Assembly: GCA_032127875.1 (NCBI GenBank)
Contig: JAQBHI010000126.1
Location: forward strand, 1,861-65,860
Direction: 5' to 3'
From: Acidobacteriota bacterium
Lineage (GTDB): Bacteria > Acidobacteriota > Vicinamibacteria > Fen-336
Length of the DNA: 64,000 nucleotides
The position numbers and the translations under genes are program-made. How positions within the stretch are numbered: the stretch's first letter is position 1; each line of letters starts with the position of its first letter. Positions 1,950 to 24,030 of the stretch are shown here, piece by piece. A model generated the notes under the pieces. That model was not told where the DNA came from. It saw only the letters and a program-made list of their open reading frames with translations, and searched no databases.

Positions 1950-3116
1950 CTAGCTCTTGCCCTTGAGCTCGAGGTCGAGGTGGAGCGTGAGGCGCTCCAG
2001 CTTCTTGTTGCCGACCAGCTTCAGCGTCAGCGCGTCTTCGACGATTTCCTCGCCGTTCTCACCCTCGAACACCAGGTGCAGTCGCAGGCCGGAGGCGCCT
2101 TTCAAGAGTCGGGCCGGAACGTCGACAGTGTTCTTGCGCCGCAGCTCCTGCTTGGAGTCGCGCTCCGAGACGAGCATTTCCCGCAGGCGCCTGTCGGTGC
2201 TCCGCTCGTCCCGGGTCGCCACGGTTGCCGGCTTCGAGGTGCTCGTCATCGCACGCAGCCGCTCCAGTTCGCTCTGGATGTCGATATGCCCCTTGGTCTC
2301 GACCGCGCGCACCCGGTACTTGTCAGTGTCCTCCTCTGCAAACTCCACGTGAACGTCCTCGCCGTGGCTCGCACCCGCCAGGTGCGACAGCGGGTCGCCG
2401 GTAGCGGGCCTGCCCGATGGCTCGGCCGATAGCGGCACGAGCGGCGGCGGCACGCTGGGCGGAGCACTCGAGCCGCGCTGCGGCGCCGGCGCGGTCGACG
2501 CCGCGACGGCCAAGCGAGGCGCATCGACCGCCAGCTTTTTTCGCGTCGACTGGATCGCCAGCCGCGAAACGCCCTTGAGCGTCTCGAAGACGCCGACGCC
2601 GTGCAGGGCCGCGGCCTCGAACCACGGGAAGCGTTTCGGGTTCAGGGCCTCGTTCAGCTTCTCGACCGTGTGAATGTTGCGAATGTCGCGCTTGTTGTAT
2701 TGCAGCACGAGCGGCAGCTGGTCGACGGTCAGGCCCAGCTCGGCCAGGTTGGTCCCGAGGTTCGTGAAGGATTCCAGGTTCGGCTCGAGCGCCGCGATCT
2801 GGCTGTCGGCCACAAACACGACGCCGTCGACACCCCTCAGGACCAGCTTGCGCGTGGCGTTGTAGAAGACCTGGCCGGGCACGGTGTAAAGCTGCAGGCG
2901 CACCTTCATCCCGCCGATCACGCCCACGTCGATTGGCAGCAGGTCGAAGAACAGCGTGCGGTCCGTTTCGGTTTCGAGGCTGATCATCTCACCGCGCGAC
3001 TGAGGCGCCGTCTTCTGATGGATGAACTGCAGGTTGGTGGTCTTACCGCACAGACCCGGGCCGTAATAGACGATCTTGGCCGTCATCTGCATCGTCGTGT
3101 AGTTGAAGAAGACCAC
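1950..3116 (-). CDS. MglA-like Ras-family small GTPase (N-terminal ~195 aa) fused to a ~190-aa C-terminal extension of unknown function
   Basis: N-terminus is closely similar to MglA of Myxococcus xanthus as I recall it (KIVYYGPGLCGKTTNL...TETDRTLFFD...YTVPGQVFY...NKRD), then a Pro/Ser-rich linker and a charged C-terminal domain. Confidence 0.8.
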   Translation of the reverse strand: MVFFNYTTMQMTAKIVYYGPGLCGKTTNLQFIHQKTAPQSRGEMISLETETDRTLFFDLLPIDVGVIGGMKVRLQLYTVPGQVFYNATRKLVLRGVDGVVFVADSQIAALEPNLESFTNLGTNLAELGLTVDQLPLVLQYNKRDIRNIHTVEKLNEALNPKRFPWFEAAALHGVGVFETLKGVSRLAIQSTRKKLAVDAPRLAVAASTAPAPQRGSSAPPSVPPPLVPLSAEPSGRPATGDPLSHLAGASHGEDVHVEFAEEDTDKYRVRAVETKGHIDIQSELERLRAMTSTSKPATVATRDERSTDRRLREMLVSERDSKQELRRKNTVDVPARLLKGASGLRLHLVFEGENGEEIVEDALTLKLVGNKKLERLTLHLDLELKGKS

Positions 3117-3136: not shown

Positions 3137-3607
3137 CTAGAAACCAATGCCGGCTCCAACGGAGAAGCGCTCGGTCATCGGCAGCAGCGCCTCTTCGGGG
3201 AGCGTGATCTTGCGGTACTCGCCCTTGACCAGCAGCAGCCCGAGGTTCACCTTCACCCCTAGCACGAAGTTGCGGACGATCCCGTTGTCGCTCCGTCCGC
3301 GGTCCGTCTGCCGATAGCCGCCGACCCCGAGGCCGGCGTACGGAACGATGCGTCCGAAGGCGGGCGCCACGAGCGCGCTCCCCACGGCCGACAACTGGCT
3401 CTGCTCCTGGATCTCGCCGAGCACGCGCGCGCCCTCGGCCTCGAAGTGGAGGATCTTGAAGAGGGTCACGCCGAAGGCCCCGCCGGCGCCCCCGGCCCAC
3501 GCGTCCCCTGGCCTGGCGATCGCCAGGAAAGCCGTGACTTCAGCAGCCTGGGCCTGGGAAAACCCGAAGAGGCTGACGCAAGAGAGCACGACGAGGCACC
3601 GCTTCAT
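3137..3607 (-). CDS. small outer-membrane beta-barrel protein (OmpW/OmpA-like 8-strand barrel)
   Basis: Signal peptide (MKRCLVVLSCVSLFGFSQAQA|AEV), alternating amphipathic beta-strand pattern, C-terminal ...GAGIGF with terminal Phe. Confidence 0.6.
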   Translation of the reverse strand: MKRCLVVLSCVSLFGFSQAQAAEVTAFLAIARPGDAWAGGAGGAFGVTLFKILHFEAEGARVLGEIQEQSQLSAVGSALVAPAFGRIVPYAGLGVGGYRQTDRGRSDNGIVRNFVLGVKVNLGLLLVKGEYRKITLPEEALLPMTERFSVGAGIGF

Positions 3608-3662: not shown

Positions 3663-3872
3663 CTACTCGACCTTGACGCGCCGGCCCTTGCGGGCTTCAG
3701 GGGCCGGGCGAGCTTCGTTGATGCGCTGGAGTTGCCACTGGCAAAGCAGGATCATGCCCTCGAGCACCTGGCGGCGTAGCTGCCGGGCTTTCCTGCGGTC
3801 GAGGCCCGCCTCCTCGAGGATCTCGGACAGCAGGCAGCACGCCTTCTTCGAGCGACTCTCATCGCGAGCCAT
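3663..3872 (-). CDS. small basic hypothetical protein (69 aa)
   Basis: ATG at 3870-3872 preceded by a strong SD (AAGGAGGaacATG) embedded in the last codons of the upstream ArsA gene, overlapping it by 14 nt. No recognisable domain. Confidence 0.4.
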   Translation of the reverse strand: MARDESRSKKACCLLSEILEEAGLDRRKARQLRRQVLEGMILLCQWQLQRINEARPAPEARKGRRVKVE

Positions 3873-5043
3873 GTTCCTCCTTGGTGCCAAACGCCACGCG
3901 CAGGCGCTGGCCCTCGAAAGCGGCGCCCAGCAGCCGGCGTGAAGCAAGCGTGCGCGGCAACGTGATGTTGCGGCGCTGGTTGTCGACCTGAACCACCAGG
4001 TCCTCGCCCCGGGTCCAGACTTCGATCTTGTCCTTCTCGGCGAAGGCCAGCTTCAGATACAAGGCGTAACCCTTGCCTTCCTTCTTGACCTCGAGCGGCT
4101 TTTCTTCGTAGAAGACCACTGTCGGGTCGTCGTCCCCGAAGACGTCGCGACCGAACTCCTCGAGCAGCTTCAAACCGACCATCTCCCGGTCGAATAGCCG
4201 GGCCGAGAGAAACGGCAACGGATCGAAGGCCTGGCGCGCGTCGGCGAGGTGTCCAGCCTGGATCGAGAACCAGCGGTCGAAGTAGCTCGAGCGAGCCTGT
4301 TCCGGCAGCACGCGGTTTGCGATCACGCAGTCGACGGGGAAGCCGAACAAGCCCAGGTACGTATGCAGGCGTTGCGACTCCTTGATCACCATTCGCTCGG
4401 GGTTGAGCACCAGGCGGATCGAGCTGGTCTTCGGGTCGCGCAGCAACGGTCCCATGCCTTCCATCTGCTGGTAGAGGGCCTTCACGGCGCCGAAGACCTC
4501 GTCCGAGGGCAACGGCATGTCGGTCATCCGCTGCGCCACCGGGCGCACCGAGCGCACCACCGTGCGCTGGATCGGGAAGATGCGCTGAAAATAGAAGTTC
4601 AGCATCTCGGGCACGCCGAGCATGCGCACGGTTTCGCCGGTCGGAGCGCAGTCGACGATGATCACGTCGTAGCTGCCGCTCTCGGCGTGGCGCTTGACGC
4701 GCAACAGGCTGAACAACTCCTCCATACCGGGCAGGATCGCCATCTCCTCGGCGACAGCGTCCTCCACGCCCTTGAAGGTCATGAAGCGCGTCAGCCAGTC
4801 GTGGATCACGCCCCAGTGGCTCGACAGCTCTTGGTTCACGTCGATCTCGAGCGCGTCGAGGTTCTTCGCGATGCGCACCGGCGCGGAGCCGGCCTCGACG
4901 TCGAAGGCGTCCGAGAGGCTGTGGGCCGAGTCCGTGGAGATCACGAGCGTGCGCTTTCCGAGCCGCGCCGAGAGCACCGCAGTGGCCGCGGACAGGCTCG
5001 TCTTGCCGACCCCGCCCTTGCCCGAGTACAACAAGATGCGCAT
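3859..5043 (-). CDS. ArsA/Get3-family ATPase with C-terminal HSP20-like (alpha-crystallin-like) domain
   Basis: Deviant Walker A MRILLYSGKGGVGKTS and ArsA signature DCAPTGETVRML. The C-terminal ~80 aa is ACD-like (GYALYLKLAFAEKDKIEVWTRGEDLVVQV...ITLP...FEGQRLRVAFG). Start fixed at ATG 5041-5043. Confidence 0.85.
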   Translation of the reverse strand: MRILLYSGKGGVGKTSLSAATAVLSARLGKRTLVISTDSAHSLSDAFDVEAGSAPVRIAKNLDALEIDVNQELSSHWGVIHDWLTRFMTFKGVEDAVAEEMAILPGMEELFSLLRVKRHAESGSYDVIIVDCAPTGETVRMLGVPEMLNFYFQRIFPIQRTVVRSVRPVAQRMTDMPLPSDEVFGAVKALYQQMEGMGPLLRDPKTSSIRLVLNPERMVIKESQRLHTYLGLFGFPVDCVIANRVLPEQARSSYFDRWFSIQAGHLADARQAFDPLPFLSARLFDREMVGLKLLEEFGRDVFGDDDPTVVFYEEKPLEVKKEGKGYALYLKLAFAEKDKIEVWTRGEDLVVQVDNQRRNITLPRTLASRRLLGAAFEGQRLRVAFGTKEEHGSR

Positions 5044-5045
5044 CG

Positions 5046-6212
5046 TCAGGAAACCCTGGCCCGTCGGCGCGGGCGGCCAGCGCTGGGTATCTCTCCGAAG
5101 ATCGCCGCGGCGACTTCGGCCAGGCCACGCAGGTCGTGCACGTCGGTCTCCAGCTCGGGAACCAGCACCGGGACCTGGCCGAGATCGACCTCGAGCCGTG
5201 CCAGGCTCTTGCGCTCCGCCCTGGCGACCAGGCGCTGTTCGCCCAACATGGCTACCAGCTTCTCGGTCAGCGACCTGGAGAGGGCAGGCGCCGGCCCACG
5301 GCCCGGCGCCGGAATGGCCTCGTCGGGATCGGGATGGAGGCGGTTCACGACCAGACCCACGAAGGGCATGCTCTTTTCCGCGAGGCGCCGGTGGAAATGC
5401 AGGGCCTCGTCGAGTGTGAGGCGCGCCGGGCTCGCCACCAGGACGAAGCCCGACGCAGGTTCTCGGAGCAGGGCGAAGACACGCGCCGCCCGCTCCTTGA
5501 AGCCATCGTACATGGCTTCGAAGGCGAGAAAGAACTCGGAGAGATCCTGCAGGAATTGGAGGCCGAGGTAGCGGTCCACGAGGCCGAGCACTGCCGCGCC
5601 GGTGCGGGTCGCGACCTTGAGCGTCAGGCGCCCTGCCGCGAAGTACGGCTTCAGGACGAAGCGCAAGATACTGGCGTCCAGGAAGCTCATCATGCGCTCC
5701 GGGGCCTCCAGGAAGTCGAGCGCATGACGCGTCGGCGGCGTGTCGAGGATCACCAGGTCGAAGCGCTCGTCCGCCGACAGCTCCAGCAGCTTCTCCATCG
5801 CCATGTATTCGTGCGTGCCAGCGAGCGCCGCCGACAGCTGTTGGTAGAAGCGGTTTTCCAGGATGCGCCGGCGTGCTTCGTCGCTGCTCGCAAAACGCTC
5901 TACGAGCGCATCGAAGGTGCCCTTCGTGTCGAGCGTCATCGCCCACATCTCGCCTCGGACCTTGAGGCCGAGGCGATGCAGCGGCAGCAGCCGCGGCTTC
6001 TGCGAGAGCTTGGAGAGGCCGAGGCTGGTGGCGAGGCGCCGCGACGGGTCGATGGTGCAGACGAGAACGCGACGGCCGAGCAGGGCCGCCCGGACCGACA
6101 AGGCGGCCGAGGTCGTCGTTTTGCCCACACCCCCCGCCCCGCACACGACGAGAATGCGGCGCTGCTCGAGGGCGGCGCCCAGACGCGCGGCGGCTCGCCG
6201 CTGCGCCCTCAC
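5046..6212 (-). CDS. ArsA/Get3-family ATPase (second paralogue)
   Basis: RILVVCGAGGVGKTT P-loop; DTPPTRHALDFLEAPE signature. GTG start at 6210-6212 overlaps the upstream TGA (GTGA). Confidence 0.8.
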   Translation of the reverse strand: MRAQRRAAARLGAALEQRRILVVCGAGGVGKTTTSAALSVRAALLGRRVLVCTIDPSRRLATSLGLSKLSQKPRLLPLHRLGLKVRGEMWAMTLDTKGTFDALVERFASSDEARRRILENRFYQQLSAALAGTHEYMAMEKLLELSADERFDLVILDTPPTRHALDFLEAPERMMSFLDASILRFVLKPYFAAGRLTLKVATRTGAAVLGLVDRYLGLQFLQDLSEFFLAFEAMYDGFKERAARVFALLREPASGFVLVASPARLTLDEALHFHRRLAEKSMPFVGLVVNRLHPDPDEAIPAPGRGPAPALSRSLTEKLVAMLGEQRLVARAERKSLARLEVDLGQVPVLVPELETDVHDLRGLAEVAAAIFGEIPSAGRPRRRARVS

Positions 6213-7213
6213 GCGGCCTCGAGGCGTTTCACGAGAAGGCGTAGGGCGTCCGGGCCGATCGGGTCCCCGAACAGGTAGGGCAGCGAGACCAGCGGGGCCT
6301 GGATGTCGCGCCGCAGGCGCTTTTCGAAGAACTGCGTCAGCTTGCGCCGGCGGATCTGGCGCCGGGCGGCGGCTAGTGCCGCGCCCAGATCGGCGTCGCG
6401 AGCGAGCCGGCCGCTGGCTCCCTGGGCGCACAGGCGCAACACGTCGGCTTCCTCTTCGTTCGTGAAACGGCGCTCATGGGCTGCATTCAGCACCGTCGCC
6501 GCGCAGCTGATGCCGAGCTCCTGCGTCGCGAGCCGGTAAAACCAGGCGGCCTCGACGGCGGCCATTTCCTCCGGGATCGCGACCACCACCAGCGCCGTTC
6601 GCCGCGCATCGCGCAACAGCGTGAGAATGCGCCGGGCATTCGCGCCGATTGGCCCGACGGGGACGGCCGCGGCCGCGGCCTGGGGCACTCTCAGGAACGA
6701 GAGGCCATGGCCGGTGGCCGGGGCGTCGACGATCACGAGGTCGAAGCGTGGCTTGCGCGACCAGCCTTGCGTCTGCTCCTCGAGCAGCATGATCTTGCCG
6801 AGGACCATCAGCTCCTTGAGGCCCGGCGCGGCCGCGAAGAAGCGGTGATAGATCGGGCTCGCGAGAACGCGCCGCGCCAGCGCTTCGATCTTCACGACAT
6901 GGCCGACGTATTCGTCCATCACGGCCTGGGGCCGGAGGTTGACCGTGAAGAGATTGGGTCGCGCCTGCGTGATCGAGCCGCCGGAATCGCTCGAGCCCAG
7001 GTAGCCTGCCGCCTCGCGGGGCGTATCGATTTCCACCAGCAGGGTGCGCTTGCCCCGCTCGGACGCCGCCAGCGCGAGCGCTGTGCCGGTGACGCTCTTG
7101 CCCACGCCGCCCTTGCCTGAGAGCACGAGCAGGCGCCTCTCGAAGAGCTGGTCGAGGATCACGCGGCTGGAGCCTAACATGCGGCGAATCGAATAGAATT
7201 CCGAGGCTTCCAT
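6209..7213 (-). CDS. ArsA/Get3-family ATPase (third paralogue, short form). True start may be the internal Met (MLGSS...) near 7180.
   Basis: LLVLSGKGGVGKS P-loop; DAPATGHGLSFLRVPQ signature. Confidence 0.8.
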   Translation of the reverse strand: MEASEFYSIRRMLGSSRVILDQLFERRLLVLSGKGGVGKSVTGTALALAASERGKRTLLVEIDTPREAAGYLGSSDSGGSITQARPNLFTVNLRPQAVMDEYVGHVVKIEALARRVLASPIYHRFFAAAPGLKELMVLGKIMLLEEQTQGWSRKPRFDLVIVDAPATGHGLSFLRVPQAAAAAVPVGPIGANARRILTLLRDARRTALVVVAIPEEMAAVEAAWFYRLATQELGISCAATVLNAAHERRFTNEEEADVLRLCAQGASGRLARDADLGAALAAARRQIRRRKLTQFFEKRLRRDIQAPLVSLPYLFGDPIGPDALRLLVKRLEAA

Positions 7214-8205: not shown

Positions 8206-9888
8206 TCAGCGTCCAGCGACGAAGAAGTGGCCCGCGTTCTGGGCGTAGAGCCGGCCCTCGGCATCGATCGAGAGTGGCGTGTAGGCAGAGCCCAGAGGCC
8301 GTTCCAGGAATACGCTCCTGCGCAGCGTCCCGTCCGAACGGATCGCGTAGAGAAAGCCGTCCTCCGCGATCCCGAAGACGTCGCCATTGCGATCGAGCGC
8401 GGGGGCGTTGATGCACCATTCGAAGCCATTCGGATTGAGAAAATGCCAGTCGGGTGCGAGCGTGTCGCCGCGCAGCTGTGTCACGAAGTACTGGCCCTCG
8501 AGCGGATCGGTGGCGCAGCTTCCGCAGTAGGAGCCGACGCCGCCGTAGTGGTTGTCCTTGACCACGATGCTGTAGCCGGCGCCGGTCGCGCGCACCGCCG
8601 GAGTAGTGTCCCAGCCGAAGTCGTAGGCCGCCAGATAGCGACCGTTCGCGTCGAACTTCATCAGATGGCCGCGGGAATAGTTGTAGCGTGAGAACGCGCC
8701 GTAGAGGATGCTGCCGTCGGGTGCCACCACGGGTGAGGAGGACGAGAGGTCGGTCACTTCGCCGTCGCCGAGGCGGTTCGTCAGTGGGTTGACGCCGAGG
8801 CGGGAGCCGCTGCGGCAGCCGCCTGCTGCGCCGTTCGGCGGCAGCACACCTCCGCCCGAAGCCGGCACGCCGCAGCCGTCGGCGAAGCGCTCGCGCAGGG
8901 TCGATGTGAAGCGCGGCGACAGGTCGGCGTTCACGGCGACCAGGGAGCCGTAGCGGGCGTTGAAGTGCGCGCGGCTCACCGTGTACACCGTCCCGTCGTG
9001 CCCGATCACCGGCCCCACGTTGACGCCCGGCCGCTGAGAACCGCAGGCGGCGCTCGGCGGCGTCGCGTCGGCACTTGGGGGCCAGGGCAGCGGCTCGGTC
9101 GTGAAGCTGGTCAGGCACTCTGCGCGAGCGCCCGGCGCTCCGCTGACGATGTCGGCGTAACGGGCGAGGCTGGCACGCCCATCGCTCGTTACCCGCACGA
9201 GCCAGGCGTCCTGTACATCGCGCCGCCAGGGGTCGGCGGGATCGAGCCGCAGGGCGTTGTAGTAGATCTCGCCATTCGCTGTGGCGGCGAGTGGTCCGGA
9301 AGCGAAAATCCGGGGATCCAGCGAGGCGCCGAACGGATTGATGCGCGTGACCAACGAACCGTCGTTCACGTCGAGCTTGATGAGCGTCCCAGCGGCGCCG
9401 GGAACGTACAGGAATCCACCGGCGAGGGCGCCCTGATTCACGGGTTCCCAGCGCAGCACGCCGCCGGGAGGCACGGGCTTCCAGTCCGAGCGATAGTTCC
9501 AGATTTCGCTCAGGCTTCCGTTCTGCCAGTGCAGGCGCTTCCAGTTCCACTCCTGCGAGGCCCAGTTGTCCGGGCCCGTGTACGTGCCGGACTTCGTCAT
9601 CAGGAACACGTCGTCGCCCGAGGCCAGCGGCACCGGGTAGTGGACGAGTAGCGCCCCGCGGCCCGAGGTCTGGATCTCCTGTGGCACGAACGGATCGACG
9701 ACCGTCTCGAAGAGCAGGCGGTCCGGGCTCTGGGCAACGACATCGAGGGTGCCCGTGTGTTGCGGGTTCTGGCCCCATTGCGGCCAGGCCACAGGACCCG
9801 AGACGGGGGGCGTCCCGGCGCTCTCGTTTCCGCCACAGGAGGGCATCAGCAGAAGGCAAAGGACGCCGATCGGGGCTCGGGTGTTCAT
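8206..9888 (-). CDS. secreted hypothetical protein (signal peptide; W/Y/N/D/G-rich, beta-propeller-like composition)
   Basis: Start at MNTRAPIGVLCLLLMPSCGG. Composition is typical of exported proteins. The competing ORF 8045-9859 on the same strand is R-rich junk. Confidence 0.55.
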   Translation of the reverse strand: MNTRAPIGVLCLLLMPSCGGNESAGTPPVSGPVAWPQWGQNPQHTGTLDVVAQSPDRLLFETVVDPFVPQEIQTSGRGALLVHYPVPLASGDDVFLMTKSGTYTGPDNWASQEWNWKRLHWQNGSLSEIWNYRSDWKPVPPGGVLRWEPVNQGALAGGFLYVPGAAGTLIKLDVNDGSLVTRINPFGASLDPRIFASGPLAATANGEIYYNALRLDPADPWRRDVQDAWLVRVTSDGRASLARYADIVSGAPGARAECLTSFTTEPLPWPPSADATPPSAACGSQRPGVNVGPVIGHDGTVYTVSRAHFNARYGSLVAVNADLSPRFTSTLRERFADGCGVPASGGGVLPPNGAAGGCRSGSRLGVNPLTNRLGDGEVTDLSSSSPVVAPDGSILYGAFSRYNYSRGHLMKFDANGRYLAAYDFGWDTTPAVRATGAGYSIVVKDNHYGGVGSYCGSCATDPLEGQYFVTQLRGDTLAPDWHFLNPNGFEWCINAPALDRNGDVFGIAEDGFLYAIRSDGTLRRSVFLERPLGSAYTPLSIDAEGRLYAQNAGHFFVAGR

Positions 9889-10052
9889 GGCGGGAAAGCG
9901 TACCTCATCCGGGGGAGTTGATTGAACAGGCCGGATATTCATCTTGTTGATCGCCGAGCGATGAAGTGTGCCGGCTCTCGTGAACCAGTGCTGGACAGTC
10001 GGAGGCAACTCTGCTCGAATAGGCGAATAAAAGGCGAAACATCAGAAAAACC

Positions 10053-13000
10053 GTGTACGTCGAGCTCCATGCCGCTTCGGCCTTCTCGTTCCTGCGCGCT
10101 GCGTCCCTGCCTGAAGAGCTCGTGGCGCGCGCGGCGGAGCTGGGCTATCCAAGCCTGGCACTCGTCGATCGCGACGGCATCTCGGGCGCGCCGCGTTTCT
10201 TCAAGGCCGCGAAGGCCGCGGGCATCCGGCCGATCGTGGGCGCCGAGTTGAGCCTGCGCGGCGGGGGCGCGCTGCCGCTCGTCGTCGAGAGCCGAGAGGG
10301 CTACCAGAACCTGTGCCGGCTCATCACGCGCATGAAGGCCGGCGTGCCGAAAGGCACGGGGACGCTCGAGCTTACGGCCCTGGAAGGCAACGTCGCCGGC
10401 CTCGTGGCGTTGCCGGGAGTCGGGGCGCTGGGCCACCCGCCCGACACCGATCGGCTCGCGCATCTGCTTGCGGCTTTCGGCCCACGCAGCGTGGCGATCG
10501 AGGTGCAACGGCATCGCCGCCGCGAACAGGAGGCCAGGAACCGGGCGCTGCTCGACATGGCAGACAGCCTCGGCCTTCAAGCCGTCGCGACGAACGGCGT
10601 GCGGCATGCGCTCTCGCAGGGGCGGGCGCTGCTGGACGTGCTCACCTGCATCCGCGAGAAGCGGACGCTGGCCACGGCCGGGCGCCTGCTGGCCGACAAC
10701 GCCGAGCGCCAGCTGAAGGCGCCGCAGGCGATCGAGGCGCTCTTCCGCGATCGCCCCGAACTGCTGCGCAACGTGGCGGCGCTCGCCGAGCGCCTCAGCT
10801 TCACGCTCGACGATCTTGGCTACCGCTTCCCCGAGTACCCGGTGCCGGCGGGGGAGACGATGCAGTCGCACCTGGCGCAGGCGACCGACGCCGGCGCTCG
10901 CGAACGTTACCGGCCGTACCACGAGAAGGCCCGCCGCCAGATCGAGCGCGAGCTGGCGTTGATCGGCAAGCTGGAGCTGGCCGGCTACTTCCTCATCGTC
11001 TGGGACCTCGTGAACTTCTGCCGGCGAGAAGGGATTCTCGTTCAGGGTCGCGGCTCGGCGGCGAACAGCGCCGTCTGCTACAGCCTCGGCATCACGGCCG
11101 TGGACCCCGTCGGCATGGAGCTGCTCTTCGAGCGTTTCCTGTCCGAGGAGCGCGGCGAGTGGCCCGACATCGACCTCGACCTGCCCAGCGGCGGCAAGCG
11201 CGAGCGCGTGATCCAGTACGTCTACGAGCGCTACGGCGAGCGCGGCGCGGCGATGACCGCCAACGTCATCACCTATCGCGACCGCAGCGCCTCGCGCGAG
11301 ATCGGCAAGGCGCTCGGCATCCCGCTCACGGAGATCGAGCAGCTCGCGCGTTACATGCGCCGCTTCGAGTTCGTGGACCCGGACGACACGCTCGCGAAGC
11401 GGCTGCGCGAAGCGGGCTTCGACACGGGCGACTCGCGCATCCGGCTGTTCGCACGGCTGTGGGGCGAGATCCAGGACCTGCCGCGGCACCTGGGCCAGCA
11501 CTCGGGCGGGATGGTGATCGCACAGGGCGCCCTCGACAGCGTAGTGCCGCTGGAGCCGGCCTCGATGCCGAGCCGGGTGATCGTGCAATGGGACAAGGAG
11601 GACTGCGCCGACTTGGGGATCATCAAGGTCGACCTGCTCGGCCTCGGGATGCTGGCGGCCCTCGAGGACTGCATCTCGATGTTGCGTGGGCGCGGCGTCG
11701 AAGTGGACCTTGCGCACCTGCCGCAGGACGACCCGAAGGTCTATGCGATGCTGCGGGAGGCCGACACCGTTGGCCTGTTCCAGGTCGAGAGCCGCGCCCA
11801 GATGGCGACGCTGCCGCGCCTGAAGCCCGAGCGCTTCTACGACCTCGTGGTCGAAGTCGCGATCATCCGGCCGGGACCGATCGTGGGCAAGATGGTCCAC
11901 CCGTACCTGGACCGGCGCGCCGGGCGCGAGGGGGTCCGCTATCCGCATCCGTCGCTTGAGCCGATCCTCGCCCGCACGCTGGGCGTGCCACTGTTCCAGG
12001 AGCAGCTGCTGCGCATGGCGATGACGGCGGCCGGCTTCACCGGCGGCGAGGCCGAGGAGCTGCGCCGGGCCATGGGTTTCAAGCGCTCGCAGAAGCGGAT
12101 GGCCTCGATCGAGGCGCGGTTGCGCGCGGGCATGCTGCGGAACGGCATCACGGGCGAGGCCCAGGAGCAGATCGTGCGCTCCATCGCCTCGTTCGCGCTG
12201 TACGGGTTTCCCGAGTCCCACGCCGCGAGCTTCGCACTCATCGCCTATGCCAGCGCCTACCTGAAGGCCTACCATCCGGCGGCCTTCGTGGCGTCGCTGC
12301 TCAACAACCAGCCGATGGGCTTCTACCATCCGACGACGCTCGTGAAGGACGCGCAGCGCCACGGAGTGCGCTTCGAAGCGGTGGACGTGACGCGAAGCGA
12401 CTGGGACGCGACACTCACGGACGGCGGCGTGCGTCTCGGGCTGGGTTGTGTCGCGGGCCTGCGCCGCGAGGCGGGGGAGCGGATCGTCGTCGAGCGCGCA
12501 GGCGCAGCGTTCGCATCGCTGCAGGATTTCGTCGACCGCGCCTCGCTGCGCCAGGACGAGTTGCGGATCCTCGCCGAGATCGGCGCGCTCAACGCCTTCG
12601 GACTGACTCGGCGGAGTGCCTTGTGGCAGGTGGAGCGCGCGGCGCGCCCGCGCGGGCCGCTGCTACGCGACGTTCCCGAGGTGCTCGATGACTCACCGCT
12701 GCCGGAGATGACGTTTCCCGAGCGCCTGACCCGGGATCTTCGCGGCACGGGGCTCACGGCCGGCCCGCACCCGATGCTGCTCTATCGCGAATCGCTGGTG
12801 GCGCGCGGCGTGAGGCGCGCGGTCGAGTTGTCGCGGCTCGAGGACGGTGCGCGTGTGAGCGTGGCAGGCGCCGTGATCTGCCGGCAGCGGCCCGGTACAG
12901 CCAAGGGCTTCCTGTTTCTGACGCTCGAAGACGAGACCGGCCTCGCCAACGTGACGGTGCGTCCCGACCTGTTCCAGCGGGCGAAAGGCGTTCTGGTGAA

Positions 13001-13118
13001 CACCGGAATTCTCGAGGTCGAAGGCATCTTGCAAAACCTCGAAGGTACGTCGGTCCGTGCGCTTTCCGTCCGGCCTCTGGGCAAAGCCCCTATCTCGATG
13101 TCACGGAATTTTCGATAG
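10053..13118 (+). CDS. dnaE2: error-prone DNA polymerase (DnaE2/ImuC, Pol III alpha-type)
   Basis: 1021 aa. N-terminal PHP domain (MYVELHAASAFSFLRAAS...) and polymerase core motifs. The length matches DnaE2 rather than DnaE1. GTG start. Confidence 0.9.
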   Translation: MYVELHAASAFSFLRAASLPEELVARAAELGYPSLALVDRDGISGAPRFFKAAKAAGIRPIVGAELSLRGGGALPLVVESREGYQNLCRLITRMKAGVPKGTGTLELTALEGNVAGLVALPGVGALGHPPDTDRLAHLLAAFGPRSVAIEVQRHRRREQEARNRALLDMADSLGLQAVATNGVRHALSQGRALLDVLTCIREKRTLATAGRLLADNAERQLKAPQAIEALFRDRPELLRNVAALAERLSFTLDDLGYRFPEYPVPAGETMQSHLAQATDAGARERYRPYHEKARRQIERELALIGKLELAGYFLIVWDLVNFCRREGILVQGRGSAANSAVCYSLGITAVDPVGMELLFERFLSEERGEWPDIDLDLPSGGKRERVIQYVYERYGERGAAMTANVITYRDRSASREIGKALGIPLTEIEQLARYMRRFEFVDPDDTLAKRLREAGFDTGDSRIRLFARLWGEIQDLPRHLGQHSGGMVIAQGALDSVVPLEPASMPSRVIVQWDKEDCADLGIIKVDLLGLGMLAALEDCISMLRGRGVEVDLAHLPQDDPKVYAMLREADTVGLFQVESRAQMATLPRLKPERFYDLVVEVAIIRPGPIVGKMVHPYLDRRAGREGVRYPHPSLEPILARTLGVPLFQEQLLRMAMTAAGFTGGEAEELRRAMGFKRSQKRMASIEARLRAGMLRNGITGEAQEQIVRSIASFALYGFPESHAASFALIAYASAYLKAYHPAAFVASLLNNQPMGFYHPTTLVKDAQRHGVRFEAVDVTRSDWDATLTDGGVRLGLGCVAGLRREAGERIVVERAGAAFASLQDFVDRASLRQDELRILAEIGALNAFGLTRRSALWQVERAARPRGPLLRDVPEVLDDSPLPEMTFPERLTRDLRGTGLTAGPHPMLLYRESLVARGVRRAVELSRLEDGARVSVAGAVICRQRPGTAKGFLFLTLEDETGLANVTVRPDLFQRAKGVLVNTGILEVEGILQNLEGTSVRALSVRPLGKAPISMSRNFR

Positions 13119-13122
13119 CCCT

Positions 13123-14040
13123 TCAGGCGCTGGGAACGGTTTCGTCCCCGCCGGCGTGTTCCAGGTACGACAACATGCCGCCCGCGAGCAGCGCGGTGTA
13201 GTCCATTGCCAACTCGAAGTTGTCCTCGAACACGTCCAGCAGGCCTTCGATCGTGCCGTGAAGGGCTCGCACGGGCGTCAGGGTGGTGGCCGAGAACCAG
13301 TGGCGGACCTCGGCCACCGCCTCCATCGCGCCGATCGCGTGGGGATGGCCCACCTCGAAGCTGAGCTTGTGCGCCTGCGAAGCGCAGCCGACACGACCGT
13401 CGACCACCAGCAACACGTAGGGGGCGGGATCGGCCTCTGCCCACAGTGAGACGCCGGCGTCGAAGTGGACCTCGGTGAGGCCGCGAGACAGCTCAGCGAG
13501 GGCGTTGATGCTGCCGCGCGCGAAGGGCGTCATCTGGCGTAGAAAATGGATTCGTTCCACGAAGTCGAGTTGACCCGAGGCAAGATCCGTCGGCGGGGGT
13601 GAGGCTGGGAACTGCTGCGGCCCGACGCGCTGTTGCACCGAGATCGCCCAGCGAGAGAGGTATTGGAGCGTGCGGTGCACGATCACGAAGTGGTCCTCGC
13701 AGACCTCGAACAGTGCGTCCGCGTCGAGCTCCAACGTGAAGCTGTCGACGTCCGCGATTCCAAGGTAGCCTCGGCTGTCCCGGGCGAGCACCGCCAGGGC
13801 GCCCATCGGCGTTCCCGGTCCTGCGCCGGCGACCGGGGTGCCCCCCCGGGAGGCGCGGATGTAGCCATCGAGCACGAACTGGATCCGGCTGACGGGTTCG
13901 CCCTCGCGTTGCACGACCGCGTCCTTCGGGAACGACCGCTCGCGGAGCAGCTCCGCGAGCGCCGCCAGCGAGTCGTTTGGCAGCTGTGAGAAGGCCGGAA
14001 CCTTTTTCAGATAGAGGATCCGCTCCAGCGTGCCGATCAT
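13123..14040 (-). CDS. tandem cyclic-nucleotide-binding (cNMP) domain protein
   Basis: Two CAP-family effector-domain-like halves (ERSFPKDAVVQREGEP... and a second in the C-terminal half). Confidence 0.65.
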   Translation of the reverse strand: MIGTLERILYLKKVPAFSQLPNDSLAALAELLRERSFPKDAVVQREGEPVSRIQFVLDGYIRASRGGTPVAGAGPGTPMGALAVLARDSRGYLGIADVDSFTLELDADALFEVCEDHFVIVHRTLQYLSRWAISVQQRVGPQQFPASPPPTDLASGQLDFVERIHFLRQMTPFARGSINALAELSRGLTEVHFDAGVSLWAEADPAPYVLLVVDGRVGCASQAHKLSFEVGHPHAIGAMEAVAEVRHWFSATTLTPVRALHGTIEGLLDVFEDNFELAMDYTALLAGGMLSYLEHAGGDETVPSA

Positions 14041-14050
14041 CCCGCCCCGT

Positions 14051-16780
14051 TCAGGCACGTTGCAGCTTTGCGCTCACGCCGAGCAGGTCGAGGGCCCGCT
14101 CCAGCGCGCGTGACACGAAGAACTGCTTTTCCGCTGCCTGCAGCGCTTCGAGCCGGGGCCGGAACGTCGTGAGCCCGAGTTCGGCGATGTGATGCGCTGC
14201 CAGGCAGCGTAGCGACTCGCTCGCCTCTTCGAGCATCACGCCCAGCAGCGCCTCGTAGGGGAGGGTGCTAGGCGCGTGGAAGGGCCGCGCCCGGGCCAGG
14301 CGCTCGGCATCGGCCAGGTCGTCGTGCAACGAGAGCACGGCATCGCGCAGGGGCGGAAGCAGCAGGTTTTCGAGCAGCTCACGGCTGCTGGCGCGGATCC
14401 TGGCGTTGGCGCTGCTGCGGCCGCGGTAGATGCTGCGCAGGTCCTCGTGCCGGAACTGAAGCCCCAACAGACGGAACAGCCGTTCGACCGCGTGCGCCTG
14501 CTTGTCGCGGAGCAGGCAGACTAGAAGCTGGTGCGTTCGCGTGAGGCGCGTGCCGTCGGACGCGGCTCCCGCCTGGAGCGCGAGGCGCCAGTCGATCACC
14601 TTGAGAGCCGCCTGAAGAGTGGCGGTGGTGGCTCGGCCGAGGATGGCCCCGTCCAGCGGCAGCTCGGGAGCGTTGCTGTGGATCCGTCCGAGGCCGCGCA
14701 GGATCTTGAAGCGGACCATGCCGTCGGGCTCCGCCTCGAGCTGGCGCAGCAGCAGCGGGGCCGCGTCTTCCGGCGGGAAGGGGCTGATCGTCCGCGGCAC
14801 GTGCCGCCGGATCTCCTGCGGCAAGCCGTAGTCGGCCGAGGCCCGTTCGAGAAAGGCAAGGCCTGCGGGGCCGTGCGCCAGGAAGGCCCCCCGCGCGGCG
14901 GCGCGCACGCTGCGTTGCGCCAGCATCGGCAGCAGCGCGGGGAGGAAGCGCTCGTCGGGCATCGCCGCCATGGCCTGGGCCACGTCGCTCAGCACTTCGC
15001 CTTCCGGCGCCTCGGACAGCTCGAGCAGCGTCGCGACGAAGACCGCATCGGGCTGGAGGCGGATGGCTTGCGCAAGAGCCGTTCCGGCTTCCGGCGACTG
15101 GCTGTCGAGCAGCTCCGTCAGCGCTCTCTGGGTTTCGTCGGAGACCCAGCCGCCGGAGACGAGCCCGACCAGCGCGGCAGCTCGGACCCGCGGGCTGGAG
15201 TCGTGGCTCGCATGCTCGAGAGCCACCCTGTCGGTCTTGATCGCCACGCGCGCCCGAAGTGCGGCGGCGCGGATCTCGGGGTCGGCATCACTGAGCAGGC
15301 GGTCCGCGATGGACAGGAAGTCGGTGCGCTTCGCCGTGGTGAACAGCGCCAAGGCCCGCAGCGCGACGGCCTTGGATGGGTGATAGAGGATCAGTGCCGG
15401 AATCAGCCGCGCCTTGCCCTGGGTTTCGAGCAGGTCGAGGGCCCCCACGACCTCGGCGTCGTCGCTGCTGTTGAGGGCCGCGAAGATCGCCTCCAGCGAG
15501 CCCAGGTCGAGTTCCGGCACTTCGGCGCTGGTCACGATCGAGCCCTGGCGCAGTGCCGTCCGAAACAGATCGAGGTAGTTGTCCTTGAGGTCGCTGGCCG
15601 TCACTATCCAGAGCGTGGCCAGGATCAGCAGCGTCAGGGCGAGGAAGGCGCTCTGAGAGATGAAGGCCACGGGCGTCAGGATCAGCAGCGATGCGAGCGC
15701 CTGCCCGCCGCGTTGGCAGGTGACATCGATGAACGGCTTGGCGCGGGCGCGGATCGCGTCGGGCAGCGGAACGTAGAGCAGCTCGGTGGCGGTGCGATGC
15801 AGGGAATGGCGCAACGACCCGTCGGCGCCCTTCAACCACAGCGCCGCGGCGAGCCCGCCGCCCACGAGCAGAACGCTCGACCCCGCGATGAGCAGGGCGG
15901 GCAGCACCACGAGTGCTCGGTGCACGCCGAGCCGCCGCAGCAGCCAGCCGACCAGCGCCACCTGTACGATCAGTGCGAGGGCGTTGAGCAGCAGGTACAC
16001 GCCCGCGAAGAATTCGCCCAGTGCTTCTCCGGGCACGTACTTCACGACCGCGCTCTTGAACAGGTAGTCGGCGAGCGTCACCGCCATGGTCGAAGACAGC
16101 ACCAGCCCGGCGAGCGGGCGCGCGTAGGGATGGCGCAGGATCAGCTTCATCGAGCCGGACAGGGAAAGCGCCATGCTCGGTGCCGGGGCCTGGGCGGTGG
16201 CCTTCGAGAACAGCGAGGGCCCCAGGCTCGAGACGAAAAAAAAGGCGGCGCTGGCGAGGATCAGGTGCCGGGAGGGCAGCGCCGCGGCTATCACGCCGGC
16301 GATGCCGGCGCCGAGGATCGCGCCCAGCACGCTGCCCGTGCCGATGATCCGGTACAGCCGCTTGGCCTGCGTGAGGTTGTAGATCTCCGAGAGCACGCCG
16401 TAGAACTGAACGGTGGCGACCGTGCCGAAGAGCCCGCACCAGATATACAGCGTGTACAGCAGCCAGCGCCCCCGCGGGACTTCGCTCAACTCCCAGAGCA
16501 CGAAGTTGGCCAGGGCGGCAACCAGCAGCAGCAGCGACAACGTCGTGCGGCTCGAGAGCCGGCCCAGTCGCGGCGCGGGCAGCCGGGACAGCGCGAAGGC
16601 GATGGCCGCGATCGCGATGTACATGAAGGGCAGGCGCGTCGCTGGAATGCGCGCCAGGAACAGCGCGTCACGCGCCGTTTCGAGGAGGGTGTGACCCGCC
16701 AGGATCCCGAACAGGGTCACGAAGGCTGCCGCCGCGCCTCGTCGCTCCTCTGGCCGGACGTCACCCAACGTCGACAGCAT
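14051..16780 (-). CDS. ATP/ADP-translocase-like (Tlc/Npt1 family) 12-TM transporter fused to a C-terminal HEAT-repeat (PBS-lyase-like) domain
   Basis: N-terminal ~430 aa are polytopic membrane with Tlc-like N-terminus. The C-terminal ~450 aa carry repeated ...DPEIRAAALRAL.../...SPRVRAAALVGL... HEAT-like repeats. Overlaps the downstream cNMP gene by 8 nt. Confidence 0.75.
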   Translation of the reverse strand: MLSTLGDVRPEERRGAAAAFVTLFGILAGHTLLETARDALFLARIPATRLPFMYIAIAAIAFALSRLPAPRLGRLSSRTTLSLLLLVAALANFVLWELSEVPRGRWLLYTLYIWCGLFGTVATVQFYGVLSEIYNLTQAKRLYRIIGTGSVLGAILGAGIAGVIAAALPSRHLILASAAFFFVSSLGPSLFSKATAQAPAPSMALSLSGSMKLILRHPYARPLAGLVLSSTMAVTLADYLFKSAVVKYVPGEALGEFFAGVYLLLNALALIVQVALVGWLLRRLGVHRALVVLPALLIAGSSVLLVGGGLAAALWLKGADGSLRHSLHRTATELLYVPLPDAIRARAKPFIDVTCQRGGQALASLLILTPVAFISQSAFLALTLLILATLWIVTASDLKDNYLDLFRTALRQGSIVTSAEVPELDLGSLEAIFAALNSSDDAEVVGALDLLETQGKARLIPALILYHPSKAVALRALALFTTAKRTDFLSIADRLLSDADPEIRAAALRARVAIKTDRVALEHASHDSSPRVRAAALVGLVSGGWVSDETQRALTELLDSQSPEAGTALAQAIRLQPDAVFVATLLELSEAPEGEVLSDVAQAMAAMPDERFLPALLPMLAQRSVRAAARGAFLAHGPAGLAFLERASADYGLPQEIRRHVPRTISPFPPEDAAPLLLRQLEAEPDGMVRFKILRGLGRIHSNAPELPLDGAILGRATTATLQAALKVIDWRLALQAGAASDGTRLTRTHQLLVCLLRDKQAHAVERLFRLLGLQFRHEDLRSIYRGRSSANARIRASSRELLENLLLPPLRDAVLSLHDDLADAERLARARPFHAPSTLPYEALLGVMLEEASESLRCLAAHHIAELGLTTFRPRLEALQAAEKQFFVSRALERALDLLGVSAKLQRA

Positions 16781-22951: not shown

Positions 22952-23389
22952 CTACTTGCGGCGCTTGAGCGCGTCGATCTTGCGGGAGAGCTCTTCGACT
23001 TTGCGCGTGAGCTCCGCGATCTCGCGCCGGCTCGGGATGTTGAGCGATGCCAGGGTGTGCTGCACGGCCTGGCCGACGCGCTTGCCCGCGGACGCGCGCT
23101 CCTTCTGGATGCGGGCCTGGAGCGCCTTCAACTGGGCGTCGAGACGCTTGCCCGCCTTCTTGCGCTCGCGTTCGAAGCGACCCTGGAGATCCGCTACGAT
23201 TCGGGCCGCCTCTTTGCCGCTGAGCTTGTTCTTTTTCAGCAGTCGCCGCACTTGCTTCTCGGCCTGCTGCTCGACCGAGACCACGGCCTCGACCGCTTGC
23301 TGCCAGGCGCCGCGCGCCACCTCGGCGGCAGTGCGGCCCGTCGTCGTAGCCTCGGCCTTCAGCTTCTTCTTCGTGTTCTTCTTCGCCAT
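22952..23389 (-). CDS. phasin family protein
   Basis: K/A/E-rich helical protein with C-terminal ...ASLNIPSRREIAELTRKVEELSRKIDALK, typical of TIGR01837-type phasins. Confidence 0.7.
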   Translation of the reverse strand: MAKKNTKKKLKAEATTTGRTAAEVARGAWQQAVEAVVSVEQQAEKQVRRLLKKNKLSGKEAARIVADLQGRFERERKKAGKRLDAQLKALQARIQKERASAGKRVGQAVQHTLASLNIPSRREIAELTRKVEELSRKIDALKRRK

Positions 23390-24030
23390 TACTTTCTCCT
23401 TTTTCGTTTCTTGCCTCGGCGCACCGGCTGCTTCCTGGGCGCAGGGCCCGGCGCGGCCAGGTACGTCTCGAGGGTCATCAGTCGTTCCCTGAGCGAGTGC
23501 AGCGAGAGGCTGACTCCGCCCTCGCGTTCGCTGCGCTCCAGCAGGCTGTGGAGCGCCTGTTCCAGACCCCGCTGTGCGTCGGCCACGACGCTTTGCACGG
23601 AGTGTGCGATCTCCTGCCGCAGGCCAAGTGCCTCTTCGAAGGACAAGAGTTGACGCGACAGGAGGCCGGAAACGATGCGCTCGGCCTCCTCGCGCGCCCG
23701 GACCGCGACGCTCGGCTGTGGCGCTGCCGGCTTCCCCGGGATCGGGGCGGCGGTGAAGCGCACCAGCCGCGCCAGCACCTGCCGCGGGATGCTCGCGGTG
23801 CGTTCCTTGACGCCTTCGAGTACGACCTGGGCGAGCACCAGGTTCGTGATGTCCTCGCCCGTCTGCTGGTCCTGCACCAGGATCTCGTCGCCTGAGGCGA
23901 CGCGCGCGGCGAGGTCCTCGAGCGTCACATGGCGCTTGGCCGCCGGATCGTACAGCTTGCGGTTGGCATAGCGCTTGACGACCCGGGGGCGGAGTGCTGC
24001 TTGCCTTGCCACGACACCAATATAACGCAC
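23389..24030 (-). CDS. phaR: PhaR-like polyhydroxyalkanoate synthesis repressor
   Basis: N-terminal VKRYANRKLYDPAAKRHVTLEDLA...GDEILVQDQQTGEDITNLVLAQVVLE matches the PhaR N-terminal DNA-binding domain pattern (IKKYPNRRLYDT...ITLEDL). The TAA stop overlaps the phasin ATG (TAATG). Confidence 0.75.
   Translation of the reverse strand: MRYIGVVARQAALRPRVVKRYANRKLYDPAAKRHVTLEDLAARVASGDEILVQDQQTGEDITNLVLAQVVLEGVKERTASIPRQVLARLVRFTAAPIPGKPAAPQPSVAVRAREEAERIVSGLLSRQLLSFEEALGLRQEIAHSVQSVVADAQRGLEQALHSLLERSEREGGVSLSLHSLRERLMTLETYLAAPGPAPRKQPVRRGKKRKRRK

Follow-up and report, generated by a model that had tools for sequence, protein, structure and literature searches.

Can a bacterial Ras-like switch carry its own positioning or regulatory apparatus on the same polypeptide? 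MglA is the model for bacterial Ras-like spatial switches, and all knowledge of its positioning and switching comes, to our knowledge, from the short MglAs of Myxococcus, Thermus, and Bdellovibrio, which are coupled to MglB. The question is raised by a gene found in a 64,000-nucleotide stretch of DNA (the window; GenBank assembly GCA_032127875.1, contig JAQBHI010000126.1) from a member of the Acidobacteriota, a phylum widespread in soils. This gene, mglA (1950..3116, minus strand), encodes an MglA of 388 amino acids (aa), in which a GTPase domain (G domain) of the usual size is followed by a tail of similar length. The tail proved to be a genuine part of the protein and to end in an undescribed domain, which recurs on MglA across several classes of Acidobacteriota and which we tentatively regard as a tethered targeting or assembly domain.

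The N-Terminal Half Is a Canonical MglA

The long mglA gene is a single uninterrupted open reading frame (ORF) of 388 codons plus a stop, with a GTG start at 3116. Its G domain (residues 1 to 195; 2532..3116, minus strand) is a canonical group 1 MglA. Residues 1 to 193 are collinear, without gaps, with the Myxococcus xanthus MglA structures 6hjh, 5ymx, and 6h17 (phmmer E = 1e-73), an alignment that includes the MglA-specific insertion between G1 and G2; the same residues match the Thermus thermophilus MglA (3t12) with E = 7e-64. Identity to a Myxococcaceae MglA is 59.5% over 195 ungapped residues, and Foldseek alignments give 59%. The initial annotation of this DNA, made from the sequence alone, had put the identity to M. 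xanthus MglA at about 65%, which is slightly high; the close kinship that it asserted is real.

All the sequence motifs of the family are in place. The P-loop GPGLCGKT (G19-P-G21-L-C-G24-K25-T26) is invariant in 73 homologues and has Gly at position 21, as in group 1. The intrinsic arginine finger R53 and the switch I residue T54 lie in the β-screw segment E-T-D-R-T-L-F-F-D (ETETDRTLFFDLLP), which is likewise invariant. In the G3 motif, YTVPGQVFY, T78 replaces the Asp of Ras and the catalytic Q82 is kept; the G4 motif is N141-K142-R143-D144 (NKxD). Residues V64, I67, K181, and R185 of the MglA allosteric pocket are also retained. The best structural matches of an AlphaFold2 (AF2) model of the full-length protein are MglA crystal structures, with template modeling (TM) scores of 0.82 to 0.86 (0.85 to 0.86 for 6hjo, 6izw, and 6h17). 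Rab and Rho structures superpose on this model far worse (TM about 0.6 to 0.7), with Ras also far lower, and no PDB entry covers its second half.

Thus, the N-terminal 195 residues are a bona fide group 1 MglA by all sequence and fold criteria tested. With the full set of catalytic and conformational residues present, the G domain should cycle and signal as the MglA of Myxococcus or Thermus does, an expectation taken from the family. Two typical MglA traits are missing, namely, the single-domain size of about 190 to 200 aa (388 aa here, 193 of them beyond the G domain) and a coupled mglB gene. Group-specific residues of the G domain were considered as a possible docking surface for the tail. 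Long and short MglAs differ at 16 positions, but this contrast is uninformative, because it is confounded with phylum (Acidobacteriota versus mostly Myxococcota) and the changes are mostly conservative.

The Extension Is Genuine and under Selection

The extension comprises residues 196 to 388; the coordinates given for it in the initial annotation, 1950 to 2530, correspond to residues 197 to 388 plus the stop codon. A protein search yielded 8,000 MglA-like candidates. Among the 120 best listed, all 120 are 369 to 431 aa long, and 114 match the query along 95% or more of its length, with identities of 57 to 84%. Since homologues of similar length align over nearly the whole query, a frameshift or read-through artifact is ruled out. 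The G+C content at third codon positions (GC3) is likewise even along a single frame: it is 0.88 for the ORF as a whole, with values of 0.90 for the G domain, 0.85 for the linker, and 0.88 for the tail.

The ratio of nonsynonymous to synonymous substitution rates (dN/dS) was estimated against two homologues from a set of comparative loci (one-genome-per-species contigs covering ±10 kb around each mglA). Against the 83%-identical homologue of locus L081, dN/dS is 0.08 for the G domain, 0.39 for residues 196 to 252, 0.16 for the following acidic motif and helix, and 0.18 for the terminal β module. The more distant homologue of L001 ranks the four segments in the same order, and the ranges from the two comparisons are 0.08 to 0.13, 0.39 to 0.43, 0.16 to 0.18, and 0.18 to 0.39, respectively. 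Residues 196 to 388 are therefore a genuine, selected extension.

Architecture of the Tail

The tail begins with a linker (linker 1, residues 196 to 252; 2361..2531, minus strand) that is rich in Pro (21%), Ala (21%), and Ser plus Thr (18%), hypervariable in length and sequence, and predicted to be disordered. It has no conserved columns, and the block means of the predicted local distance difference test (pLDDT) are 44 to 53 over residues 201 to 250.

The linker is followed by an acidic motif and a first helix (residues 253 to 292; 2241..2360, minus strand), reading V-E-F-A-E-E-D, then V-R-x-V-x-T-K, and then the amphipathic D-I-Q-S-E-L-E-R-L-R. Invariant or nearly invariant columns in this segment are E258, F259, A260, E261, D263, R270, V272, T274, D279, I280, L284, L287, and R288, and F259 is invariant in 73 sequences. 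The helix, predicted at residues 280 to 292, is conserved across classes. A nonconserved loop with pLDDT below 50 (residues 293 to 305; 2202..2240, minus strand) separates it from helix 2 (residues 306 to 323; 2148..2201, minus strand), which reads RRLREMLV... and is predicted as helical at positions 56 to 69 of the C-terminal fragment. A D-x-L-L motif in helix 2, of the DDLL type in other classes, is conserved throughout the phylum.

The protein ends in a β module (residues 324 to 388; 1953..2147, minus strand), in which a basic R-R-K cluster is followed by four antiparallel strands of 10 to 12 residues, predicted at 324 to 333, 343 to 352, 355 to 366, and 376 to 385. Block-mean pLDDT is 87 to 94 over most of its length, and R327, K328, and L338 are invariant. 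Leu and charged residues take turns strictly along the strands, which would make one side of the sheet wholly hydrophobic and Leu-rich and the other charged. The predicted topology of the whole tail is α-α-β4.

Much of this was anticipated in the initial annotation. The MglA-family assignment is borne out by the E = 1e-73 match, the diagnostic residues, and the predicted fold, and the C-terminal extension of about 190 aa by its continuous frame and by homologues of similar length. Both peptides quoted from it (HIDIQSELERLRAM and LRLHLVFEGENGEEIVEDALTLKLVGNKKLERLTLHLDLEL) are present in the protein, and its description of the layout, with a charged domain after a Pro/Ser-rich linker, is correct. 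What had been taken for a single domain of about 130 aa is indeed a charged region, but a composite one, made of the acidic motif, two helices, and the 65-aa β module, with a variable loop between them. The annotation had also named two outcomes that would undo its claim. A frameshift splitting the extension into an independent ORF was not found, the frame being continuous, and the extension is not fold-less low-complexity sequence, as its last 65 residues have a confidently predicted fold.

A Domain Confined to MglA

Scans against Pfam and NCBIfam found no family matching the tail, be it in the window protein, in 43 tail sequences taken one at a time, or in a set of 10 divergent long MglAs. 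A PDB sequence search with a tail profile returned nothing even at E ≤ 10. Foldseek comparisons of the module with PDB and BFVD gave best E values of 0.15 and 0.08, respectively, at TM scores of about 0.2, with no PDB match below E = 0.1. With Pfam, NCBIfam, PDB sequences, and PDB and BFVD folds all negative, described domains (PATAN/DUF4388, PilZ, and others) were rejected. A fused Roadblock/MglB domain or the C-terminal domain of Rag-like proteins was rejected as well: hhalign against the MglB profile gave a probability of 0.3%, and Pfam and Foldseek were negative. The protein is therefore neither an MglA-MglB fusion nor of the Rag-like G-domain-plus-Roadblock design.

An HMMER search of 1.84 billion representative proteins with the tail profile gave 109 matches, and all those long enough to tell have an MglA N-terminal domain. 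The inspected matches without this domain begin inside the linker (e.g., with the recurrent start MTGEEP...) and are for that reason taken to be partial gene calls. The tail as a stand-alone protein or as an attachment to other N-terminal domains was rejected on these grounds. A word-indexed protein search with the tail alone returned 10 fragments. The tail is an undescribed C-terminal domain, with no counterpart in the domain libraries and solved structures searched.

Distribution in Acidobacteriota

Among the comparative loci, 46 from at least four classes of Acidobacteriota encode an MglA with 107 to 573 extra residues; the MglAs of Myxococcota, Nitrospirota, and similar groups are 195 to 213 aa long. 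The long-mglA loci include Vicinamibacteria, Thermoanaerobaculia, Holophagales/Holophagaceae, Solibacteraceae, Polarisedimenticolia, and Acanthopleuribacteraceae, and the closest relatives of the window protein are labeled Vicinamibacteria, which makes this class the probable source of the window. The tail profile places the module at the extreme C terminus in 38 of the 46 loci, and in most of the loci that it misses the protein still finishes with a D-x-L-L helix and, after it, amphipathic strands in the same pattern. The terminal module is thus conserved among long MglAs, whereas the linker is conserved in neither length nor sequence. The gene is not an odd paralogue; MglA with a tether and a terminal module is the standard form across several classes of Acidobacteriota, a lineage-wide architecture and an old fusion.

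The profile also finds the module in locus L028 (10001-11318), from a metagenome-assembled genome (MAG) of Thermoanaerobaculia, where a 262-aa MglA ORF is followed by the β module on a separate 72-aa ORF. It is the sole split case seen, most likely an assembly frameshift.

In JGI annotations, long MglAs are labeled "signal recognition particle receptor subunit beta," "mutual gliding-motility protein MglA," or hypothetical protein. The supplement of Wuichet and Søgaard-Andersen (2014; PMC4316618) contains two acidobacterial MglAs, both short: one of 196 aa, coupled to MglB, and an orphan of 194 aa. With these acidobacterial entries short and with MglA lengths of 168 to 313 aa among the entries of Table S2, that table does not appear to cover the acidobacterial tail. 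A literature search found no paper combining MglA with the current acidobacterial class names. The long-MglA architecture, which differs from known MglAs by its tether and undescribed tail domain, is absent from the literature searched.

Possible Roles of the Tail

Any account of the tail has to accommodate the distribution of mglB. In a jackhmmer search seeded with MglB, mglB lies directly upstream of mglA in 29 of the 29 short-mglA loci that retain upstream sequence, and none was found within ±10 kb of any acidobacterial long-mglA locus. The same search found no Roadblock/MglB protein among the ORFs of at least 50 aa in the window, and a Pfam scan of 28 window genes (including 15 small and 5 larger ones from a GC3-filtered gene call) found no Robl_LC7 domain and no pilus or gliding genes, in keeping with the absence of an adjacent MglB gene in the initial annotation. 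In the survey by Wuichet and Søgaard-Andersen (PMC4316618), 390 of 449 MglAs are coupled to mglB (Roadblock/LC7) within four genes; the window mglA, with no mglB coupled to it, is an orphan in the sense of that study.

From the architecture of the tail, its conservation, the selection acting on it, and its exclusivity to MglA, we infer, at somewhat less than even probability, that it is a tethered targeting or assembly domain. This reading follows from four features: the length of the tether is free (107 to 573 aa), the module is always terminal, its hydrophobic face needs cover, and it occurs only on MglA. The MglA switch would be complete in residues 1 to 195, with the tail acting as a flexible, hypervariable tether that ends in a conserved helix/β module. 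Something would have to cover the hydrophobic sheet face: the amphipathic helices of the same module, another copy of the module (in a dimer or oligomer), or a partner with a fixed place in the cell. Each of these would leash the G domain to a defined site, for instance a pole, the envelope, or a scaffold. Localization, which in Myxococcus is performed in trans by MglB, RomR/RomX, and similar proteins, would be partly built into the GTPase. The suggestion in the initial annotation of a built-in regulatory or localization module is plausible in this light; the anatomy favors localization or assembly, and no fold resembling a GTPase-activating protein (GAP) or guanine nucleotide exchange factor (GEF) was found.

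A 476-aa MglA encoded in an Ignavibacteria MAG (L056, 10001-11927) is an independent parallel in favor of this reading. Its long, highly acidic linker ends in KKKFSLFGWLKRLGRK, which we read as an amphipathic membrane-targeting helix of the MinD/FtsA type, and MglB is encoded 14 nucleotides (nt) downstream of the mglA gene. Such a tail with mglB beside it indicates that C-terminal tethers on MglA can serve localization and need not replace MglB.

Several considerations weigh against a targeting or assembly role. The tail of the L056 protein is different in kind from the acidobacterial one. AF2 places the helices of the acidobacterial tail without confidence (predicted TM score, 0.39), so that its tertiary and quaternary arrangement is not fixed by the model, and any localizing, oligomerizing, or partner-binding activity of the tail is putative. 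No neighbor conserved across classes points to a partner, synteny in Vicinamibacteria being different from that in Thermoanaerobaculia. Finally, the absence of mglB beside the acidobacterial long mglA and its presence beside every short one would suit regulatory replacement equally well.

Such a replacement is the first alternative: the tail would be a regulator in cis, folding back on the G domain in a GAP-like, GEF-like, or autoinhibitory manner and standing in for the missing MglB and/or RomR. We consider it doubtful, although the anticorrelation between the acidobacterial tail (±10 kb and the 64-kb window) and an adjacent mglB (29 of 29 short loci) is perfect. The retention of G21, R53, and Q82 also marks a G domain of the GAP-responsive type, unlike the locked MglA of Bdellovibrio, in which G21 is not kept. 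A specific variant is that V-E-F-A-E-E-D may fill the allosteric pocket (K181 and R185 of α5 and V64 and I67 of the β2-β3 loop), whose basic α5 residues are conserved. In M. xanthus, the acidic C-terminal helix of MglB (…SPFAEISDDDIDNLF) binds in this pocket, which probably also accepts the Glu-rich tail of RomR, and basic α5 residues of MglA co-occur with C-terminal helices rich in Asp and Glu (Baranwal 2019; PMC6785124). The FAE-plus-acidic core of the motif recalls the MglB tail SPFAEI(S/T)D(D/E)DIDNLF. However, the likeness is limited to FAE and three acidic residues: with F259 aligned to F145, the crystallographic contact residues D150 to D152, D154, and F157 of the MglB helix (PMC6785124) are left unmatched. 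Mimicry of that helix is therefore kept as a weak lead only. The motif is, moreover, followed by Gly/Lys in a region with no predicted helix, and outside Vicinamibacteria it decays to [VI]-acidic-F-x-[EQ]. In the AF2 model, no tail segment docks on the G domain (pLDDT is below 50 for most of residues 246 to 273), the module is unrelated to Roadblock, and mglB could still lie elsewhere in the long-mglA genomes, given that the loci cover ±10 kb.

In its broadest form, the idea is that Acidobacteriota have made MglA a self-contained polarity switch, the tail supplying in cis what MglB and/or RomR-RomX supply in trans, namely, an anchor at the pole and/or control over nucleotide cycling, perhaps with VEFAEED at the α5 pocket. 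Such a protein would be the bacterial equivalent of a eukaryotic GTPase with its hypervariable region and anchor. That combination appears unlikely.

Another reading that we hold to be improbable is that the tail couples MglA to an effector, such as type IV pilus ATPases, a complex remodeling the envelope or peptidoglycan, or the outer-membrane protein (OMP) encoded upstream, thereby hard-wiring the switch to one output. It would explain the hydrophobic face of the module as a surface that needs a partner, and the neighboring genes offer candidates: in Vicinamibacteria the long mglA is probably in an operon with a small OMP-like gene, and in Thermoanaerobaculia/Holophagales nine loci have a gene for a lytic transglycosylase with SLT and LysM domains 10 to 45 nt after it, and in 23 loci such a gene lies no more than about 3.3 kb away. 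However, these neighbors vary by class and the module does not, a cytoplasmic GTPase is beyond the direct reach of an OMP or a periplasmic transglycosylase, and there are no motility or pilus genes in the immediate neighborhood or among the 28 window genes scanned.

Last, an artifactual or nonfunctional extension (MglA fused to a downstream ORF by a frameshift or lost stop, or low-complexity read-through), for which the low complexity of linker 1 and the separate 72-aa ORF of L028 might be cited, is ruled out for practical purposes by the continuous frame with GC3 of 0.85 to 0.90 throughout, the identical architecture in more than 100 independent assemblies, a dN/dS of about 0.4 or less in all segments (0.39 to 0.43 in the linker), the confidently predicted β fold, and the fact that no independent gene for the module was seen, the inspected short matches beginning within the linker as partial gene calls would.

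Gene Neighborhood

Upstream of mglA in the window lies a gene for a secreted, OMP-like protein of 156 aa (3137..3607, minus strand), with a signal peptide, a C-terminal ...GAGIGF, and no Pfam match; judging by its sequence, the protein resembles small 8-stranded outer-membrane β-barrels. Its stop codon is 20 nt ahead of the mglA GTG, and a σ70-like promoter site (3643-3615) is found just ahead of the OMP-like gene, which is why the two genes are probably cotranscribed. Homologues of the OMP-like gene adjoin the long mglA in four other loci (L001, L002, L004, and L006), and L081 has a 156-aa gene in the same position; this placement is confined to Vicinamibacteria. Downstream of mglA is a convergent gene for a GT4 glycosyltransferase.

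The order conserved in Vicinamibacteria is three genes for ArsA/Get3-like ATPases, the small OMP gene, and the long mglA. In the window, the three tandem P-loop ATPase genes occupy 3859-7213 (minus strand), and the copy nearest mglA (about 3859-5043) has a C-terminal ArsA_HSP20 domain. The whole set is syntenic in L001, L002, L004, L006, and L081, with no arsenic resistance genes nearby.

In Thermoanaerobaculia/Holophagales (e.g., L008, L009, L011, L017, and L021, at about 10001-13100), a divergent hrcA-grpE-dnaK-dnaJ cluster is found upstream of the long mglA, and a comM-like Mg-chelatase gene comes after the SLT+LysM gene. The SLT/LysM gene of L081 lies 4.5 kb downstream of the long mglA, which suggests an ancestral arrangement later broken by insertions. 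A conserved neighbor that would name a partner was sought and rejected, as synteny is class specific and no gene is common to all classes.

Farther from mglA, the window contains adjacent genes for a phasin and PhaR (PHB_acc_N; 22952-24030, minus strand), which indicates that the organism makes polyhydroxyalkanoate granules. A 1,021-aa DnaE-type polymerase III α subunit, short for a replicative DnaE, is encoded at 10053-13118 (plus strand), next to a divergent 600-aa ORF without a Pfam match (8206-10008, minus strand); this polymerase gene is also found near the long mglA in L081. The region 13123-16780 (minus strand) contains a gene for a 909-aa protein that has both an MFS/TLC-type transporter region and HEAT repeats. 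This gene shares 8 nt with a gene on the same strand for a 311-aa protein with a cyclic-nucleotide-binding domain, an unusual pairing.

Comparison with Known Systems

In its gap-free identity of about 59%, P-loop, R53, T54, T78, and Q82, NKRD and TLFFD motifs, and basic residues of α5, the window protein is like the MglAs of M. xanthus and T. thermophilus (6hjh, 5ymx, 6izw, and 3t12). It differs from the characterized proteins of these organisms, which have neither the tether nor the C-terminal module, in being twice as long, and its gene, unlike theirs, has no adjacent mglB and is not set in a motility locus. Other members of the MglA family without a coupled MglB and/or with additional sequence include SofG of M. 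xanthus, the Bdellovibrio MglA, and the longer entries in Table S2 of Wuichet and Søgaard-Andersen, such as Fisuc_0226 (313 aa) of Fibrobacter. A SofG-like paralogue in L077 is 47% identical, whereas the G domain of the window protein is far closer to MglA proper (about 60%).

If the tail does localize or regulate MglA in cis, the acidobacterial protein would offer a simpler, single-polypeptide polarity module to dissect, and its terminal module would represent a new protein domain family and a convergence on the tether-and-anchor plan found in small GTPases of eukaryotes. Should it merely bind a lineage-specific partner, the result would still be a useful correction of the annotation.

Covalent joining of a small GTPase to a dimerizing or regulatory domain has a parallel in the Rag/Gtr GTPases, whose G domain is fused to a C-terminal Roadblock domain that dimerizes. 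However, the Roadblock of Rag and of the GAP MglB has the order α-β-β-α-β-β-β, in contrast to the α-α-β4 predicted for the acidobacterial tail. A switch or enzyme followed by a linker and a terminal element is also the design of eukaryotic Ras, Rho, and Rab, with their hypervariable region and anchor, of FtsZ, with its linker and C-terminal peptide, and of MinD and FtsA, with their terminal helix, by analogy and not by homology. In those proteins the terminal element is a lipidated peptide, a peptide, or a single helix, whereas in the acidobacterial MglA it is predicted to be a folded module of about 65 to 135 aa.

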